From Clostridia bacterium 41_269 (lineage in GTDB: Bacteria > Bacillota > DTU086): a stretch of DNA of 64,000 nt. The number at the start of each line of letters is the position of its first letter. Within the stretch, counting starts at the first letter, position 1. The translations under genes and the position numbers were made by a program. Location of the stretch: positions 2,493 to 66,492 of the forward strand of contig LGEZ01000009.1 in the NCBI GenBank assembly GCA_001508005.1, given 5' to 3'. The notes under the pieces were generated by a model. That model was not told the DNA's origin. It did not search any database and worked only from the letters and a program-made list of their open reading frames with translations. Shown one piece after another: positions 7,386 through 40,506 of this stretch.

Positions 7386-8549
7386 ATGGGACAGCTTAAA
7401 AGAAAACTTCATATTTGGGCAGCAGCTGTTCTGGCATTTTTTTTATACAGCCTTTTAAGCCCGTTTCCCTCATATGCTGCGGCGGGTTTGGATTTAAAAT
7501 GCAAAGGAGCTGTTCTTGTTGAAGCTCAATCTGGAAAGGTGCTTTACGAAAAAAATTCACATTTAAAATGGTACCCTGCAAGCATGACAAAAATAATGAC
7601 ACTTGTATTGGCTCTAGAAGCAGTTAGGGATGGCAGGGCTTCCCTAAATGAAAAGGTGGTGGCTAGCGAAAATGCGTGCAGTTATGGGGGAACGCAAGTT
7701 TGGCTGAAGCCTGGCGAGGAATTTTCTTTAAAGGAAATGCTTATAGCCATTGCAGTGGGTTCTGCCAATGACTGTTGTGTAGCAGTTGCCGAGCATTTAG
7801 CAGGAACAGAAGAGGCTTTTGTGGATATGATGAACAAGAGAGCTGAGGAACTGGGAGCGAAAAATACTCATTTTGCTAATTCCCACGGACTGCATAATGA
7901 TAATCATTATACTACTCCCTATGATTTAGCACTTATTTCCCGATATGCAATAACCCTTCCCCATATGCTGGAGCTGACATCCATAAAGGAATACACTTTT
8001 AGGGAAAAGCCTAAGTTGGTATTATATAATACCAATAAACTTCTTTGGTGGTTTGAGGGCACGAAGGGATTGAAAACTGGAACAACAGACAAAGCTCTGC
8101 GTAACCTTACTGCAGTTGCTGAAAGGAACGATCTTACGTTAATAAGCGTGGTTATGGGCTGTGAGGAAGATCGTGGACATTTTACTGAAAGCATGAAGCT
8201 TTTAAGATATGGCTTTGCCCGTTATACCTATAAACATTTTTACAGCAAAGGAAAGCAAATTGCCCAAGCTAAGGTGGGCAAAGGGAATGTTGATAAGATA
8301 GGAGTGGTTCCTAAGGAAAATATAGGGGTTGCTGTTCCTAAAGGGGAAAATATTTCAATAAAAGTTCGCTGTGAGCTTCCAAAATTAGTGGATGCTCCGG
8401 TGAAAAAAGGGGAAGTGATTGGGAATGCAGTTGTTTTGGAGGGAGACAAAAAAGTTTTTAGTGTACCCCTTTGTGCAGCAGAGGAGATAAAAAGGGCTTC
8501 CTTCTTTAACATGTTTAAAAAAGTTTTCTTTAGTATATTTTCGATGTAA
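7386..8549 (+). CDS. D-alanyl-D-alanine carboxypeptidase (S11, PBP5 family), dacF-like by neighbourhood
   Basis: Signal peptide, SMTK (SxxK), SAND (SxN) and KTGT motifs. Confidence 0.85.
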   Translation: MGQLKRKLHIWAAAVLAFFLYSLLSPFPSYAAAGLDLKCKGAVLVEAQSGKVLYEKNSHLKWYPASMTKIMTLVLALEAVRDGRASLNEKVVASENACSYGGTQVWLKPGEEFSLKEMLIAIAVGSANDCCVAVAEHLAGTEEAFVDMMNKRAEELGAKNTHFANSHGLHNDNHYTTPYDLALISRYAITLPHMLELTSIKEYTFREKPKLVLYNTNKLLWWFEGTKGLKTGTTDKALRNLTAVAERNDLTLISVVMGCEEDRGHFTESMKLLRYGFARYTYKHFYSKGKQIAQAKVGKGNVDKIGVVPKENIGVAVPKGENISIKVRCELPKLVDAPVKKGEVIGNAVVLEGDKKVFSVPLCAAEEIKRASFFNMFKKVFFSIFSM

Positions 8550-17208: not shown

Positions 17209-18247
17209 AGGATTGGGATTGGAAGTTGTGGTTCCTCCCCCTTGTACCAAGAAAACCCTGAGTTTAGGTGTTCTGCATGCCCCTGAATTTATATGTCTGC
17301 CTTTAAAAATTAATTTGGGCAATTATATGGAAGCAGCAGAAAAGGGTGCGGATACCATTATTATAGCTGGAGGGAGAGGACCATGCCGATTTGGTTACTA
17401 CTGCAGACTGGAAAAGGAGATATTAGATGACTTGGGATATGAGTTTAGAATGATAGTTTTGGAACCCCCTGAGAATAATTTTTTGGAAGTAATACAAAAT
17501 ATTCGAGCTTTGTCAAAGTGCAGCATGTTTCAGATGATAAATGCTGTTAGAACTGCCTGGTTTAAGTGCTGTGCGGTGGATGAAGTTGAAAAAAAAGTTC
17601 AGATAGTTCGGGCTTGGGAAAGCTGTCCAGGCTTAGCTGATAAGATTTACAGGGAAGCTTTAAAAAATATTGATAAAGCTCAGACGATTAAAGAAATTTT
17701 TTTTGCAAAACTTAATGTTTTGGAAGCTTTTAATGATGTTCCTGTGGAACCTGAGCGTGAAGTTATACGCTTAGCCCTGGTAGGAGAAATATATACCATA
17801 TTAGAACCCTTTGCAAATCAGAATATTGAAAGGCATTTAGGAAAGCTGGGAGCAGAAGTTAAAAGATCAATTTATTTGAGCAGTTGGGTAAACGATCACC
17901 TTCTAGGCAGTATTCTCCCAATGGAAAGTACTAAAGAGGCATGCAGGATGTCTTCTCCTTATTTAAACTATTTTGTGGGAGGACATGGAAAAGAAACAGT
18001 GGGCAGTGCTGTTAAATTTTCTCGTGAAGGATTCGATGGAATAATTCAAATTGCACCCCTGACATGTGGTCCTGAGATAGTAGCGGAATCTATTCTTTCT
18101 AAGGTTTCCTTTAGCGAAAAAATTCCTGTTATGACCATATATATGGACGAGCAGTCAGGTGAAGCAGGACTTATAACACGACTGGAAGCTTTTGTGGATA
18201 TGATCCGACGCAAAAAGTTGTCCCAAAAAACAGCAACCCGTAAATAA
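17150..18247 (+). CDS. CoA-enzyme-activase-associated domain protein (DUF2229-like), paralogue 2
   Basis: Start placed at ATG 17150 (MKITFPHMG...) with a GGAGAGG RBS. C-terminal motif MDEQSGEAGLITRLEAFVDM. Confidence 0.45.
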   Translation: MKITFPHMGNLWISAKVLLEGLGLEVVVPPPCTKKTLSLGVLHAPEFICLPLKINLGNYMEAAEKGADTIIIAGGRGPCRFGYYCRLEKEILDDLGYEFRMIVLEPPENNFLEVIQNIRALSKCSMFQMINAVRTAWFKCCAVDEVEKKVQIVRAWESCPGLADKIYREALKNIDKAQTIKEIFFAKLNVLEAFNDVPVEPEREVIRLALVGEIYTILEPFANQNIERHLGKLGAEVKRSIYLSSWVNDHLLGSILPMESTKEACRMSSPYLNYFVGGHGKETVGSAVKFSREGFDGIIQIAPLTCGPEIVAESILSKVSFSEKIPVMTIYMDEQSGEAGLITRLEAFVDMIRRKKLSQKTATRK

Positions 18248-18262
18248 AAGGGGGTATTTCCC

Positions 18263-19261
18263 ATGAAATCATACATGGGAATAGATGTCGGCTCAGTAAG
18301 CACTAATATTGTGCTGTTAGACGACAAAGGGGATTTAATTGAAAAGCTGTATGTTAGAACCAATGGGCAGCCCATAAATGCTGTTCAAAAAGGTCTTAAA
18401 AAAATTGAAGAAAAGATTAAAGCCAATGGTTGGGATGTTGAAATTGCTGGTGTAGGTACTACCGGAAGCGGAAGGAAGCTTGCTGCTGTCATAGTTGGGG
18501 CTGATGTTGTTAAAAATGAAATAACAGCCCATGCAGTAGCAGCAATGAATGCTGTGCCCGAAGTCCAAACAGTGATTGAAATTGGAGGGCAGGATTCAAA
18601 AATTATAATAATCCGCAATAGAGTTGTTGCAGATTTTGCAATGAATACAGTTTGCGCTGCAGGCACAGGTTCCTTTCTTGATCAGCAGGCTGCAAGGCTC
18701 AGCTTAACCATAGAAAAGTTCAGCAGGATGGCGTTAAATGCTCAGACTCCTGTGAGAATAGCAGGTAGATGTTCTGTTTTTGCTGAATCGGATATGATAC
18801 ACAAACAGCAGATGGGACATAATCTTCCGGACATTATTGCAGGGCTTTGCGATGCATTGGTTCGAAATCATCTTAATAATGTAGGGAAAGGAAAAGAAAT
18901 ACTGAGCCCAATAGTTTTCCAGGGCGGTGTTGCAGCTAACGAAGGCATGAGGGAAGCTTTCCGAAAAGCTTTGGACGCTGAAATTATTATTCCAGAGAAT
19001 TTTGAGGTAATGGGAGCTATAGGAGCTGCACTATTAGCTCGGGAAAAAATGCTTCAAAATAAAGATATTAAAACGGCGTTTAAAGGTTTTAGTACAATAA
19101 ACTGTGATTTAAAAGTTAGGGGATTTGAATGCAGCGAGTGTCCAAATTTATGTGAAGTGGTAGAAATATACGAGAATTTACAGATTTTAGCCCGCTGGGG
19201 CGACCGCTGTGGAAAGTGGACGGAAGGAATTCAAGAGCAAAAAAATGTTAATTTTAACTGA
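18263..19261 (+). CDS. BadF/BadG/BcrA/BcrD/HgdC-type ATPase (CoA-substrate-specific enzyme activase) with Cys-rich C-terminal tail
   Basis: Acetate/sugar-kinase-fold ATPase motifs (GIDVGSVSTN, GVGTTGSG, GGQDSK, CAAGTGSF). C-terminal CxxCxxxC cluster. Confidence 0.7.
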   Translation: MKSYMGIDVGSVSTNIVLLDDKGDLIEKLYVRTNGQPINAVQKGLKKIEEKIKANGWDVEIAGVGTTGSGRKLAAVIVGADVVKNEITAHAVAAMNAVPEVQTVIEIGGQDSKIIIIRNRVVADFAMNTVCAAGTGSFLDQQAARLSLTIEKFSRMALNAQTPVRIAGRCSVFAESDMIHKQQMGHNLPDIIAGLCDALVRNHLNNVGKGKEILSPIVFQGGVAANEGMREAFRKALDAEIIIPENFEVMGAIGAALLAREKMLQNKDIKTAFKGFSTINCDLKVRGFECSECPNLCEVVEIYENLQILARWGDRCGKWTEGIQEQKNVNFN

Positions 19262-19342
19262 TCTGCGGTTTTTATACCCTTTACAAGGGAGTTTATTTCC
19301 TGTAGAATTACACTATAATTTTAATTTTTATATATAAAAGCT

Positions 19343-19379
19343 GAGAAGAGAGGAGAGGAGAAAGTTGAGAGGAGAAGAA
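19343..19379 (+). promoter_or_regulatory. (G)AG triplet-repeat cluster overlapping the RBS and start of trpB2, a candidate TRAP-type translational operator
   Basis: GAG at 19343, 19348, 19353 and 19358 with period 5. Then GAG at 19367 and 19372 and GAA at 19377. The TTG start at 19365 lies inside the cluster. Confidence 0.45.
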
Positions 19380-20678
19380 AAATTTACAAAAATTGTGCTG
19401 AACGAAGAGGAAATACCTACAAAGTGGTACAACATTCAGGCAGATATGCCTAAACTGCCGGATCCACCTTTGAATCCAGCAACCCGCGAGCCCATTAAGC
19501 CTGAAGATCTGTCTCACCTTTTTCCCATGGAATTAATTGAACAAGAAGTCAGCACAGAAAGATACATTGAAATACCCGAGGAAGTGCAGAACCTCTATCG
19601 CTTATGGAGGCCAACTCCCCTTATAAGAGCCCGCAGACTTGAAAAAGCTCTAGATACGCCTGCAAAAATATTTTATAAGTATGAAGGAGTAAGTCCGGCA
19701 GGGAGCCACAAACTTAATACTTCTATTCCCCAAGCATATTACAACAAGCGGGAAGGTATAAAAAGAATTACAACCGAAACAGGGGCAGGACAGTGGGGTA
19801 GCGCCCTGAGCATGTCGTGTAATTTTTTTGGAATGGAATGCGTAGTTTATATGGTTCGTGTGAGTTATGATCAAAAACCTTACCGCAGAACCTTTATGCA
19901 GGTTTTTGGTGCTCAGGTTGTTCCCAGTCCCAGCCAGCGTACAAAGGCTGGAAGAAAGGCTCTGGAGTTAGATCCCAATACTCCAGGAAGCCTGGGCCTA
20001 GCCATAAGTGAAGCTGTAGAAGAAGCTGCTTCAAGGGATGATACAGCTTATTCCCTTGGCAGCGTGTTAAATCATGTTGTGCTGCACCAGACCGTTATTG
20101 GACAAGAAGTTAAAGCGCAGATGGAAAAGGTTGATGCATACCCTGATATAATAATTGGCTGCTGTGGAGGAGGAAGTAATTTTGCAGGTTTGGCTTTTCC
20201 TTTTATAAAAGATAAATTTGAAGGTAAAAAAATTAAGGTTATTGCTGTAGAACCTGCTGCTTGTCCCACATTAACCCAAGGAAGCTTTCAATATGACTAT
20301 GGAGGTACAGCAAAGATGACCCCTTTAATGAAAATGTACACCCTGGGGTATGATTTTGTTCCTTCAGGCATACATGCAGGGGGATTAAGATATCATGGCG
20401 AATCCCCATTGGTAAGCCAGCTGTATCATGATGGATATATAGAAGCTGTTTCATACAAGCAGACTGAAATTTTTGAGGCTGCAGTTACCTTTGCTAAAAA
20501 TGAAGGCATAATTCCGGCTCCAGAAAGTGCCCATGCTATAAAAGCAGCAATAGATGAAGCATTGAAATGCCGCGAGGCAGGAGAATCTAAAAATATTGTA
20601 TTTGGATTAAGCGGCCATGGCTATTTTGATATGTCGGCTTATGATGCTTATTTAAGCGGTTCCCTGATGGATGTATAG
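19365..20678 (+). CDS. trpB2: tryptophan synthase beta chain, TrpB2 type (stand-alone)
   Basis: 437 aa with the N-terminal extension [12 protein letters not shown] and PLP-lysine motif GSHKLN, characteristic of TrpB2. Located outside the trp operon. Confidence 0.8.
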
Positions 20679-20793
20679 ATGTATAAATTTATGTATTAAC
20701 TTATTGTATATTTAGCTCCAGCTAAAAATGTTTTATAATATCAGGCGGCAGCAGTATTAACTGATGCCGCCTTTTAAAGTTTAATAGATAGGA

Positions 20794-32593: not shown

Positions 32594-33007
32594 ATGAACT
32601 ACGGCAGCAAAGGGGTTGCAGCTACAGCGATTCAAATGGCTCTAACAGAAAATAGGGAGGAAGAAGCAAAACTTAAAAAAAAGTTTGCTGAAATTGGTAT
32701 TGCAGCAGCAGCTGTGGATTATGGTGGTGAATTTATAAATTCAGTTAAAAAAATAGTTGAAAGAGCGGTTGTAGCAGCCAAGAGGGAAGGAGTAATAAAG
32801 GAATCCCATTCTGAAGAAGGTGCTGTAGCTGGTGCTACGAGGGAAGCCTTATCTCAGATAGTACCCAAAGCTCTGGGATTAAATGTAGGTGGAAAAATTG
32901 GTATTGCCAGATATCAGGATCATATATCAGTGGCAATATTTTTTGGAATAGGCCTTCTGCATTTAGATGAAGTTGCCATAGGACTTGGACATAGAGCCAT
33001 TGGTTGA
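32594..33007 (+). CDS. HutP-family RNA-binding protein (anti-terminator family)
   Basis: Aligns by eye with B. subtilis HutP across conserved blocks: GVI.ES..E.HA..AT.EAL and the C-terminal H..VAI..G.G.....E.A.G.GH. About 137 aa, like HutP. Confidence 0.6.
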   Translation: MNYGSKGVAATAIQMALTENREEEAKLKKKFAEIGIAAAAVDYGGEFINSVKKIVERAVVAAKREGVIKESHSEEGAVAGATREALSQIVPKALGLNVGGKIGIARYQDHISVAIFFGIGLLHLDEVAIGLGHRAIG

Positions 33008-33498: not shown

Positions 33499-33546
33499 GA
33501 GTTGAGCTGAGATGAGATGAGATGAGGGGAGAGGAGCTGAGATGAG
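33499..33546 (+). promoter_or_regulatory. trp leader RNA-binding site: 10 consecutive GAG triplets with 2-nt spacers (TRAP-type)
   Basis: GAG at 33499, 33504, 33509 ... 33544, exact 5-nt period. Lies between the candidate promoter and the terminator. Confidence 0.6.
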
Positions 33547-33565
33547 GCTGGTGGTATTGGAGCGA

Positions 33566-33597
33566 AACCAGTGCTCATTTTAGCACTGGTTTTTTGT
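33566..33597 (+). terminator. trp leader attenuator terminator
   Basis: AACCAGTGCT-catttt-AGCACTGGTT perfect 10 bp stem plus TTTTTTG. An alternative antiterminator pairs ATGAGgCTGGT (33542-33552, includes GAG 10) with ACCAGtgCTCAT (33567-33578). Confidence 0.7.
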
Positions 33598-35116: not shown

Positions 35117-35691
35117 TACTGGTCTGCGATAATTACGACTCTTTTACCTATAATCTCGTCCAGTATTTAGGTGAACTGGGTGCGGAAACCTTTGTTTTCA
35201 GAAACGATGAATTGAGACCTCAAGATTTTTGTAATCTGGAACAGTATGTCAGGGGCGTTGTAATTTCTCCTGGCCCCGGAAAACCTGAGGATGCGGGTAT
35301 ATCTATGGATCTGGTGAGATATTTTGCAGGCAGGGTACCGGTTCTGGGAATATGTTTGGGCCATCAGTGCATAGGCAGGGTTTTCGGGGGAGAAATTGTG
35401 CCTGCAAAAGCCCTTTTTCATGGAAAGACTTCTGAAATCAGGCATGATGGAAAAGTGCTTTTTGAAAATGTTTCAAACCCTTTTACAGCGACCAGGTATC
35501 ATTCCCTGGTCATTGACAGAAAGAAAATTCCTGCATGTCTGGAGGTGACTGCAGAGACGGAAGATGGAGAGGTAATGGGGGTGAGGCACAGGGATTTTAA
35601 AATTGAGGGTCTTCAGTTTCATCCTGAATCTATTTTGACTTTAGAGGGAAAAAAGATAATATCAAATTTTTTAAACATGTGTGCTGATTAG
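35113..35691 (+). CDS. trpG: anthranilate synthase component II (glutamine amidotransferase)
   Basis: GATase class I motifs (GICLGHQ catalytic Cys, HPES). Confidence 0.9.
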   Translation: MILVCDNYDSFTYNLVQYLGELGAETFVFRNDELRPQDFCNLEQYVRGVVISPGPGKPEDAGISMDLVRYFAGRVPVLGICLGHQCIGRVFGGEIVPAKALFHGKTSEIRHDGKVLFENVSNPFTATRYHSLVIDRKKIPACLEVTAETEDGEVMGVRHRDFKIEGLQFHPESILTLEGKKIISNFLNMCAD

Positions 35692-35726
35692 AATAGCTGA
35701 GATCAGCTGAGATTAGCTGAGAGGAG
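35689..35726 (+). promoter_or_regulatory. NAG triplet repeats (8 at exact 5-nt period) spanning the trpG stop and trpD RBS
   Basis: UAG, UAG, GAG, CAG, GAG, UAG, GAG, GAG at 35689, 35694 ... 35724. The last two form the GAGAGGAGG SD of trpD (GTG 35735). Confidence 0.5.
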
Positions 35727-35734
35727 GAATTCAA

Positions 35735-36747
35735 GTGAGAGAATACATTGCAAAAATTTCCGATGGGGTTGATCTGACAGCATCTGAGGCTGAGCGTGCA
35801 ATGGAAATGATTATGGATGGAAATGCTACAGCTGCGCAAATAGGTGCTCTGCTTATGGGACTCAAACTAAAGGGAGAATCTTCTCAGGAAATTACTGGTT
35901 TTGCAAGGGCTATGAGGCGTCGAGCTTTGGGGTTTAAAGTACCCATGGATGTTGTGGATACCTGTGGTACTGGGGGGATTATGCAGAAACTTTTAATATA
36001 TCCACTGCTGCTGCTTTTGTGGCAGCTGGTGCAGGAGTTCCAGTAGCCAAACACGGAAACAGATCAGTGTCAAGCCGGTGTGGAAGTGCAGATGTCCTTG
36101 AAAGGTTGGGAGTAAATATTGACCTTGAACCGAAACATGCGGAAAAATGCCTTCGCGAAATAGGAATTTCCTTTCTGTTTGCTCCCAGATACCACAGAGC
36201 AACAAAAAATGCAATGGGACCAAGAAAGGAGTTGGGTATAAAAACTATTTTTAATATTTTAGGACCGTTAACCAATCCAGCGGGTGCAAGCAGTCAGGTT
36301 GTAGGTGTATTTGATCCTGAATTGACCGAGACAATAGCGGAGGTTCTTGCTGCACTGGGCACGAAAAGGGCATTTGTTGTCTGCGGTAGTGATGGTTTAG
36401 ATGAAGTTACGATAACGGGAACCACCAGGATTACAGAATTAAATGCAGGTTTTATTCAGACCTATGATTTCGATCCCAGGGAACTGGGCTTTAAATTAAG
36501 GAACATTGAAGATTTAAAAGGCGGTGATCCAGAGAAAAATGCTGAGATTCTTTTGAACGTGCTTGAAGGGGAAGAGGGGCCCAAAAGGGAAGCGGTGGTT
36601 TTGAATGCTGCCTTTGCCATTCTTGCCGGAAATAAGGCTTTTTCCCTTAAGGAAGCTGTAGAAAAAGCTGAGCACAGCATCGACAGCGGGGCAGCGCTAA
36701 AAAAGCTTTACGATCTGAAAAAATTTACAGGAAGCTGTGTTGCATAA
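35735..36747 (+). pseudogene. trpD: anthranilate phosphoribosyltransferase, frame broken in a G6 run (35972-35977)
   Basis: Upstream ORF ends ...[13 protein letters not shown]. Adding one G gives [41 protein letters not shown]..., continuous with ORF 36019..36747 and matching the GTGGD motif. Confidence 0.85.
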
Positions 36748-37531: not shown

Positions 37532-38167
37532 ATGGTAAGGGTGAAAATATGCGGTATAAAAACCTTTGAAGATGCCCGGTATGCAGTGGAGTATGGTGCC
37601 CATGCCCTGGGATTCGTATTTTGTGAAAGCAGAAGAAGAATAGACCCCCTGATGGCCAGGGAAATTATAAGGTCCATTCCGCCCTTTGTGATGAAAGTGG
37701 GTGTTTTTATGGATCAAGATTTGGAATATGTTTTAAGTGTTGTGGATTTCTGCGGTTTGGATGCCGTTCAGCTTCATGGCACTGAAACCCCGCAGTACTG
37801 CAGCCAATTTGAAAAACTGCCCTGCCAGGTAATAAAGGCTTTCAGAGTTAAAGATGATGGTGTAATTGATGAAATTAAAAAATATAAAGTGGATGCCTAT
37901 CTGCTTGACAGCTGGGTCCGGGGCAAACCTGGGGGAACTGGGAAAAAATTTGATTGGGACATAGCAAAAAATATTGTAAAGAAAAGCAGCAGGCCGGTCA
38001 TTCTTGCAGGGGGGCTAAATGAAAAAAATGTGGCAAAAGCGGTAATGGAGGTTTCTCCCTATGCTGTGGATGTAAGCAGTGGTGTTGAAAGTTCTGGAAA
38101 GAAAGATAAAAACAAAATAATTCGTTTTATGAATGAAGTGAGGAGGATTAATCTTGCAATTGCATAG
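37532..38167 (+). CDS. trpF: phosphoribosylanthranilate isomerase
   Basis: MVRVKICGI... PRAI N-terminus. About 210 aa. Confidence 0.85.
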
Positions 38168-39344
38168 ATCGGCATACTTTGGAGAATACGGTGGACAGTT
38201 TGTGCCTGAAACTGTTATGCCCGCTTTAAAGGAACTCGAGGAAGAGTACTATAAAGCTGTGAATGATGAAAATTTCAAAAGGGAACTGAATTATTATCTT
38301 AGGGAATATGTGGGCAGACCCACTCCGCTCTATTATGCTGAACGGCTGTCAGAAAAGCTTGGAGGAGCAAGAATATATCTCAAAAGGGAAGATCTGAACC
38401 ACACGGGTGCCCACAAAATAAACAATACCATAGGTCAGGCACTCCTCGCATTAAGAATGGGAAAAACAAGGGTGATTGCGGAAACGGGTGCTGGGCAGCA
38501 TGGGGTTGCTACAGCAACTGCGGCGGCTTTGTTTGGGCTTCAGTGCCAGATATTTATGGGAGAAGAAGATATGAAGCGGCAAGAGCTTAATGTTTTCCGT
38601 ATGGAACTATTGGGAGCCGAGGTGGTGCCCGTAAAAAGCGGAACCCGTACCTTAAAGGATGCTACCAATGAAGCTATTAGGGATTGGGTTACCAACGTTA
38701 GAAATACCCACTATATAATCGGTTCAGTGGTAGGCCCCCATCCATATCCCACTATTGTGAGGGATTTCCAGAAAATTATAGGGGAAGAAATTAGAAAGCA
38801 GTTTCAAGAAATAGTGGGCGGCTGTCCCGATTATATCATTGCTTGTGTTGGAGGCGGCAGTAATGCCATGGGTACTTTTTACCCCTTTATTGAGCAGAAG
38901 AAGGTACGGCTGATAGGAGTTGAAGCTGCGGGCTGTGGCATATCAACAGGAAAACATGCTGCATCCTTAAGTGCAGGCAGTCGGGGTATTCTCCATGGTA
39001 CCCTAACATACATTCTTCAGGATGAGTTTGGGCAGATTGAACCTGCTCATTCCATATCTGCAGGTCTTGACTACCCGGGAGTAGGTCCTGAGCATGCTTT
39101 TTTAAAAGACAAAGGGCGTGTGGTATATACTTCAGTAACGGATTATGAAGCCCTTGAGGCTTTTCATCTGCTGGCCAAAACTGAAGGCATACTGCCTGCC
39201 CTGGAGAGTGCCCATGCTTTAGCTTATGCAGCGAAAATAGCTCCTAAACTGAAAGAAGATAATACTATCGTTGTTACACTGTCGGGAAGAGGGGATAAAG
39301 ATGTACAGTGTGTGCTGGAACAGAAAAGGAGGAAAGGAAATTGA
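38154..39344 (+). CDS. trpB: tryptophan synthase beta chain (TrpB1, operon copy)
   Basis: [19 protein letters not shown]-lysine and GGGSNA motifs. Confidence 0.9.
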
Positions 39345-40198: not shown

Positions 40199-40370
40199 GA
40201 AAATTTTGTATTGTAACAATTTAAAACCTGTGCTACTATACCCTTTAAAAGAGTTTTAAATATTGATTTAATTTGAAATTTGGGGCAGAACGGCGTAGGC
40301 TTTTGTACAGTTTTTTGGAAGATTGGTAGGACGGTAGGGGCAGATGGGATTATACTGCCGTTTTGCCGTA

Positions 40371-40405
40371 ATCACTCCTACCTTTCTTCAAGGAGTGATT
40401 TTTTG
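40371..40405 (+). terminator. intrinsic terminator/attenuator hairpin in the trpA-DAHP synthase intergenic leader
   Basis: ATCACTCCT-11 nt loop-AGGAGTGAT 9 bp stem plus T5-7. Upstream GGTAGG copies (40326, 40334) can pair with CCTACC (40377-82) as an antiterminator. Confidence 0.5.
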
Positions 40406-40506
40406 ATTTCCCGTCTGCTTAATAAAAAAAGGGGGTGTAAAAAAAGAAATTTTATTAGTATTTCCCGGATTTATCAATACTACGGAAGAACGGAGGTTGA
40501 TTTAAA

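Follow-up and report, generated by a model that had tools for sequence, protein, structure and literature searches.

In Bacillus subtilis, TRAP (MtrB) binds over the Shine-Dalgarno (SD) sequences of trpE, trpD, trpG, trpP and ycbK and thereby represses their translation (PMC13170310). Its operators on trpG (pabA), trpP (yhaG) and ycbK are made of (G/U)AG triplets with spacers of about 2 nt, lie over the SD or start codon of tryptophan-related genes transcribed apart from the trp leader, and are expected to act by ribosome occlusion (PMC13170310). The B. subtilis trp leader is an attenuator, with 11 (G/U)AG triplets and an antiterminator/terminator switch. NAG triplets are likewise read by HutP, another amino-acid-activated oligomeric protein, in the antitermination of hut: three triplets with 4-nt spacers are bound per face in HutP-RNA structures, two such sites are placed around the terminator, and binding turns the genes on. 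We report here on trpB2, which encodes a TrpB2-type tryptophan synthase beta chain, in a 64,000 nt stretch of Clostridia bacterium 41_269 (contig LGEZ01000009.1, positions 2,493 to 66,492 of the forward strand), hereafter the window; the features described are on its plus strand. The SD and start codon of this gene lie inside an array of NAG triplets, which resembles the trpG, trpP and ycbK operators in triplet, spacing, position and type of target. A TRAP-type translational operator on trpB2, i.e. a new target for the mechanism known from Bacillus, appears the most likely reading of this sequence. The differences from the B. subtilis operators are in the target (trpB2 is missing from B. subtilis, and is no described TRAP target in the literature searched, where nothing linking TRAP and TrpB2 was found), in the host, a Peptococcaceae-type clostridial metagenome-assembled genome (MAG), and in the array itself, made of six GAG and two AAG with one irregular spacer.

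The array, a putative TRAP operator (19338-19374), reads AAG-ct-GAG-aa-GAG-ag-GAG-ag-GAG-a-AAG-tt-GAG-ag-GAG, and the tract runs on to 19379, past the last GAG, with aa GAA. Re-reading of the sequence placed the GAG triplets exactly where a preliminary description of the locus had put them, four of them (19343, 19348, 19353 and 19358) following one another exactly every 5 nt, and two further on, at 19367 and 19372; the spacing is thus of four GAG separated by 2 nt, followed by two more GAG also separated by 2 nt. With the AAG found in register at 19338 and 19362, the total is 8 NAG. Other GAGs overlap these out of phase, at 19350, 19355 and 19369. The SD region AGGAGAGGAGA (19351-19361), in which two GGAG cores (19352-19355 and 19357-19360) form the trpB2 SD, and the TTG start codon (19365-19367), the G of which is the first base of the GAG at 19367, are both inside the array, so that the overlap of the repeats with the ribosome-binding site and the start, also part of that description, held. 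The array RNA is predicted to be unstructured (minimum free energy of -7.6 kcal/mol, z = 0.13 against shuffles), with no stable fold over the array. Triplet and period are those of the B. subtilis trp leader, but no terminator was found between the trpB2 array and the coding sequence, nor any alternative structure after the array. Control would therefore be exerted on translation, not by attenuation.

To quantify the rarity of such arrays, strict chains were defined as at least 4 (G/T)AG with 2-3-nt spacers, and both strands of the window (128 kb of strand) were scanned. A relaxed chain score, in which one irregular spacer is tolerated at a cost, was used as well. Only three strict chains were detected, at the trp leader, at the trpG-trpD junction and at trpB2, all of them trp genes, and the same three arrays, without any other in the window, reached a relaxed score of at least 3.5. 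Around trpB2 orthologues from 80 species, about 1.2 Mb of loci contained 7 strict chains, 3 of which were at trp sites. As an SD-matched control, we scored 383 open reading frame (ORF) starts with a GGAG or GAGG core 4-12 nt upstream, taken from related Firmicute loci and from the window itself. About 95% of them scored 2 or less, and 7 entries reached at least 4, all trpB2 or trpD starts (6 distinct genes). The trpB2 scores were 7.5 in the nearest relative (locus L002), 5.5 at L015 (with two alternative starts listed), 5.0 in the window and 4.5 at L012; for trpD, 6.0 was obtained in the window and 4.0 in Moorella. Dense GAG clusters at unrelated purine-rich ribosome-binding sites, the finding that would have spoken against the first claim on this locus, were therefore not observed: none of the 7 entries is a non-trp gene. 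This confirmed that the trpB2 GAG repeats are real and non-random, and are not an ordinary purine-rich ribosome-binding site.

The array is conserved with the gene. In the nearest relative, Clostridia bacterium AS09scLD_70, whose TrpB2 is 93% identical, it reads TAG aa TAG ct GAG ag GAG ag GAG a TAG tt GAG aa GAG, that is 8 (G/U)AG. Compared to the window, exactly one GAGAA unit (5 nt) is deleted, one spacer is changed, and TAT, AAG and AAG have become TAG. These changes keep or improve the (G/U)AG register with no gain for the SD, which speaks against a pure SD reading. Scores of at least 5 over the trpB2 start were also obtained in Desulfotomaculum copahuensis and Pelotomaculum terephthalicicum. 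In the former, the start is embedded in GAG aa GAG gg GAG uuuu GAG aa GAG AU GAG, with the ATG inside GAG-AU-GAG. The association of the array with trpB2 is thus kept in the nearest relative and recurs in two other genera, and none of the 63 non-Firmicute trpB2 loci scored above 3.0 (Mann-Whitney p = 6e-6).

The two other arrays of the window are both in the trp operon. The first, in the operon leader (33499-33546), consists of 10 GAG with an exact 5-nt period. Its last three repeats provide the 5′ arm of an antiterminator competing with an intrinsic terminator (33566-33596, AACCAGUGCU-CAUUUU-AGCACUGGUU and then a U run), the 3′ arm of the antiterminator being the 5′ arm of the terminator; the whole leader (33499-33596) is of the same type as the B. 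subtilis attenuator. Calderihabitans and Thermincola ferriacetica have orthologous leaders, with nine (G/U)AG repeats each and orthologous terminators (loci L185 and L184, respectively); a ...GAGCUGAGAUGAGG.CUGG... segment and an ACCAG.ACUC...GAGUGCUGGUUUU terminator are common to these leaders. The second array, at the trpG-trpD junction (35689-35726), reads TAG-aa-TAG-ct-GAG-at-CAG-ct-GAG-at-TAG-ct-GAG-ag-GAG, 8 NAG with an exact 5-nt period extending from the stop codon of trpG to the SD of trpD, of which the GTG start is at 35735. It is likely a TRAP operator on trpD, and equivalent trpG-trpD arrays are found in Moorella (L085), in Thermincola (L184, 6 repeats on trpD) and in operons linked to mtrB (L104, L106, L167). 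The preliminary description had counted trpB2 as third member of a putative NAG-repeat regulon, in which the leader would be the first member and the junction the second. The membership stands, since there are three arrays only and all are at trp genes; the set is most simply the classical TRAP regulon.

We noted that trpD itself occupies two ORFs (35735-36046 and 36019-36747) instead of one, a G being missing from the G6 run at 35972-35977. A G7 there would restore DTCGTGGDYAETFNIST, and in the NCBI record trpD carries no annotation. Either the assembly is wrong at this homopolymer or the frameshift is genuine; in the latter case, indole salvage by TrpB1 or TrpB2 would gain in importance.

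We consider it probable that Trp-loaded TRAP binds the array at 19338-19374 and represses trpB2 translation, according to the following scheme. The gene would be transcribed alone from its own promoter (19280-19308), with an unstructured 5′ untranslated region (UTR) of about 50 nt. At high tryptophan, the ring-shaped Trp-loaded TRAP, encoded elsewhere in the genome, would take one (G/U)AG per subunit; the RNA would wrap around the ring, burying the SD and the TTG, so that 30S binding would be blocked and no TrpB2 made. At low tryptophan, TRAP would let go of the RNA, TrpB2 would be translated, and free indole converted into tryptophan. At the trp leader the same TRAP would cause transcription to terminate, and at trpD it would prevent translation.

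Several points weigh against this scheme. The trpB2 array has only 6 GAG and 2 weak AAG, and its junction is irregular (a 1-nt spacer, or a 6-nt gap). Characterised TRAP sites of B. subtilis have about 9-11 triplets, and the translational ones about 9. The site being shorter and less regular than these operators of about 9 triplets, repression may be only partial. By way of comparison, the internal ribosome-binding sites of mtrB-linked operons carry 5-7 triplets, the window trpB2 8 NAG and its nearest relative 8 (G/U)AG. Next, most of the Firmicute trpB2 loci examined score 1-3, so the operator would be confined to a subset of them. The segment is also extremely GA-rich, and dinucleotide-preserving shuffles of the 56-mer reach its score in 146 cases out of 5000 (2.9%). 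Finally, neither tblastn nor a TRAP profile revealed an mtrB in the window, the one part of the MAG that was searched.

The composition of the segment suggests a first alternative, in which the repeats are simply a strong purine-rich SD, or (GAGAR)n low complexity made by slippage, with an accidental period and no regulator. The tract is indeed almost pure G/A, with its two GGAG cores and out-of-phase GAGs, the shuffles reach its score at the rate just given, and the deletion seen in the nearest relative is one repeat unit, as slippage would give. Yet this does not account for the absence of any non-trp entry scoring at least 4 among the 383 SD-bearing starts, nor for the restriction of the other window arrays to the trp leader and trpD. 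Neither does it explain why the non-GAG triplets have turned into TAG in the nearest relative without improving the SD, or why similar arrays cover the trpB2 ATG in two genera where the surrounding sequence is unrelated. We therefore hold this alternative to be unlikely, though it is the best of the three considered.

Who would bind the array, if a regulator does, was addressed by searching mtrB with tblastn, using a TRAP query and later 20 real TRAPs together with the profile. Neither the window nor any of 90 non-TRAP loci gave a match. Searches of databases and of representatives with TRAP returned lists in which no Moorella, Peptococcaceae or Thermincola was named. On a first reading these lists suggested that mtrB might be absent from these lineages, a view ruled out by the gene table of Calderihabitans maritimus KKC1, where MtrB is annotated (KKC1_RS01455), with Thermincola TherJR_2330 as best hit (PMC7306483). 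As Calderihabitans and Thermincola are missing from the TRAP lists despite this annotation and this best hit, the lists are incomplete. The same table has a HutP-family gene (KKC1_RS00755) beside chorismate mutase, with Thermincola TherJR_1609 as best hit (PMC7306483), and the best hits suggest that Thermincola also has the pair of MtrB and HutP-family genes. Since Calderihabitans has a trp leader orthologous to that of the window and encodes TRAP, a TRAP encoded outside the window is likely the binder.

The layout of operons physically linked to mtrB points in the same direction. In 10 of 80 metagenomic mtrB loci (L104-L183), mtrB is directly upstream of the trp operon, and these ten operons have leaders with 9-12 repeats, plus arrays of 5-7 repeats over internal ribosome-binding sites, either where trpG meets trpD or at the start of trpB. 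This is the layout found in the window, in Moorella and in Thermincola. The metagenome scan for TRAP behind these loci returned no contig of Ga0136450, the sample to which the window belongs. Leader folding, the mtrB-linked layout and the Calderihabitans gene table together favour TRAP as the binder, and in the window the tryptophan-related target trpB2 stands together with a 10-GAG leader, its antiterminator and terminator, and the trpD array. The most economical reading of these genomic data is that mtrB is elsewhere in this MAG. Outside Bacillales we observed mtrB in two recurrent contexts (loci L088-L103 and L104-L183). One is whiA-dnaE-mtrB-(small ORF)-pfkA-pyk, as in L088-L103, and in clostridial MAGs mtrB is often found between dnaE and pfkA; in the second, mtrB immediately precedes (DAHP synthase)-trpE, and the leaders have 9-12 (G/U)AG repeats.

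A second alternative is that the GAG arrays are bound not by TRAP but by a HutP-family protein, a paralogue perhaps sensing tryptophan. Its gene (32594-33007, encoding 137 aa; Pfam PF09021, E = 2.8e-51) is directly upstream of aroH, encoding a type I chorismate mutase. The protein had no NCBIfam model match and no sequence match to solved HutP structures, and nothing was found in the literature searched on HutP paralogues or on this subfamily. Its sequence identity among Moorella, Zhaonella, Thermincola, Calderihabitans and Desulfolucanica is 75-86%, and its gene is always directly upstream of aroH. The Pfam match is full-length, with the 10-GAG leader following 0.5 kb further on, and the HutP-aroH pair is conserved upstream of trp/aro operons in the same five genera. 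HutP recognises XAG triplets (PMC2425495). The failure to find mtrB in the window also speaks for this alternative, as does the fact that a HutP-family gene occurs within 10 kb of none of 96 mtrB loci.

The architecture of the arrays argues otherwise. A 5-nt period and 8-10 contiguous triplets suit a ring of 11 or 12 subunits, not the three triplets of HutP with their 4-nt spacers. The trpB2 array, with its 2-nt spacers, its 6-8 triplets, the absence of a terminator and the repression expected, does not correspond to a HutP site, and the arrays of the window are of the same design as those of mtrB-linked operons. Moreover, the HutP-aroH pair is kept also where no trp operon follows, and Calderihabitans, with its orthologous GAG leader, encodes both MtrB and the HutP-family protein (as does Thermincola, by best hits). 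The coexistence of the two proteins in Calderihabitans implies that the paralogue is no substitute for TRAP and has a separate role. Binding of the arrays by the HutP-family protein in place of TRAP is thus quite improbable. The broader proposal that this protein, alone or together with TRAP, reads the trpB2, trpD and leader arrays, and so represents in Clostridia a new class of tryptophan- or aromatic-responsive NAG-binding regulators, with trpB2 among its translational targets, has in our opinion an equally slim chance of being correct.

It is more likely that the HutP-family protein has a target of its own, for example the GGUAGGACGG-containing attenuator located before the DAHP synthase gene. 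There, an unannotated conserved leader is present in the window (40270-40410) and at two other loci (L086, ~7440-7600, and L184, ~18135-18260). It contains an invariant 10-mer, GGTAGGACGG (40325-40334 in the window), with NAG triplets and an intrinsic terminator (40372-40404) downstream of it. The GGUAGG motif is predicted to pair with CCUACC of the 5′ arm of the terminator, forming an antiterminator. The 10-mer and the terminator recur in Zhaonella and Thermincola, and with Rfam the aroF leader matched nothing, even when E ≤ 1 was allowed. We regard this leader as a possible new aromatic-amino-acid attenuator, on which the HutP-family protein might act.

The last alternative, that the GGA-rich tract is the site of another translational regulator such as CsrA (which binds GGA over the SD), or a purine-rich enhancer unrelated to tryptophan, is very improbable: several AGGA motifs do overlap the trpB2 SD, and Firmicutes commonly use CsrA-type repression over the SD, but no hairpins are predicted that would present the GGA motifs, the pattern recurs specifically at trp genes, other SD-rich starts being without it, and the TAG substitutions of the nearest relative create no GGA.

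As for the gene downstream of the array, trpB2 (19365-20678) encodes 437 residues of a TrpB-like pyridoxal-phosphate enzyme, predicted to synthesise tryptophan by salvaging indole, with NF009057, TIGR01415 and Pfam PALP matches. The product scored 754 bits with NF009057 (cut-off 366) and 675 bits with TIGR01415 (cut-off 518.85), and 164 bits with the TrpB1 model TIGR00263, below its cut-off of 392. By these model scores it is a true TrpB2. The copy in the operon (38154-39344) is a TIGR00263 trpB, i.e. the canonical TrpB1, and the trp leader begins some 12.8 kb downstream of trpB2, in agreement with the initial proposal of a TrpB2 paralogue apart from a trp operon having its own trpB1. The high serine affinity that had been attributed to TrpB2 needs correction: these enzymes are known instead for a high affinity for indole and for the use of O-phospho-L-serine as substrate (PMC11917138).

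The ORF is closed upstream by an in-frame TAA at 19335, and the conserved N-terminal TKI..L and WYNI motifs of TrpB2 orthologues are downstream of the TTG at 19365. This TTG is the only plausible start, because two GGAG cores precede it and the nearest relative has the same TTG. Upstream, a sigma-70-type promoter (19280-19308) is made of TTTACA and TAGAAT with a 17-nt spacer, matching 10 of the 12 consensus positions; both hexamers are kept in the alignment with the nearest relative. It predicts a 5′ UTR of about 50 nt, and an A/T-rich stretch separates it from the array. The preceding gene, a BcrAD/BadFG-type activase, stops at 19261. After the trpB2 stop, a GC-rich terminator-like hairpin was read from the sequence (20744-20775, GGCGGCAGCAGU...ACUGAUGCCGCC followed by UUUU), and the hairpin with its four Us indicates that trpB2 is monocistronic.

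The order of 2-hydroxyacyl-CoA dehydratase-like genes, activase, trpB2 and lysA (from 16174 through trpB2 at 20678 in the window) is conserved as far as Calderihabitans; in C. maritimus KKC1, the gene before that of TrpB2 encodes a 2-hydroxyglutaryl-CoA-dehydratase activator, which matches the arrangement of the window (PMC7306483). A lysine riboswitch separates trpB2 from lysA at two other loci (L009, 11462-11649, and L015, 11761-11948); no riboswitch match was found before lysA (20794) in the window.

In other Firmicutes, a T-box is found directly upstream of stand-alone trpB2, as in Thermoanaerobacterium sp. (L005, 9477-9787), where the specifier is UGG, or in a Syntrophomonadaceae MAG (L018, 1559-1856). 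Stand-alone trpB2 is therefore Trp-regulated there too. These Trp T-box leaders and the array share gene, position and logic, TrpB2 being made only when tryptophan is short; they differ in that the T-box is an antitermination device in which RNA senses tRNA. None is present in our case, as no Rfam match was obtained anywhere in the window at the gathering score, T-box (RF00230) included. In Pelosinus (L006), a terminator-like hairpin is upstream of trpB2, with no T-box above threshold. Stand-alone trpB2 would thus be regulated by tryptophan through whichever device the lineage uses.

If the proposed scheme is correct, TrpB2 joins the TRAP regulon, and TRAP control, worked out almost wholly in Bacillus, extends to Peptococcaceae- and Moorella-type Clostridia. 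It would act there at the same three levels, namely leader attenuation, an internal operator at the trpD ribosome-binding site and a remote translational operator. The practical value would be modest: TRAP binding could be studied on a clean and short natural operator, and the annotation of MAGs would gain a rule for recognising TRAP regulons. The scheme would also bring regulatory evidence on the long-debated role of TrpB2. A trpB2 gene repressed by tryptophan, via TRAP here and via the Trp T-box elsewhere, behaves as one expected to encode an enzyme of tryptophan supply and indole salvage, and not a housekeeping or catabolic one.

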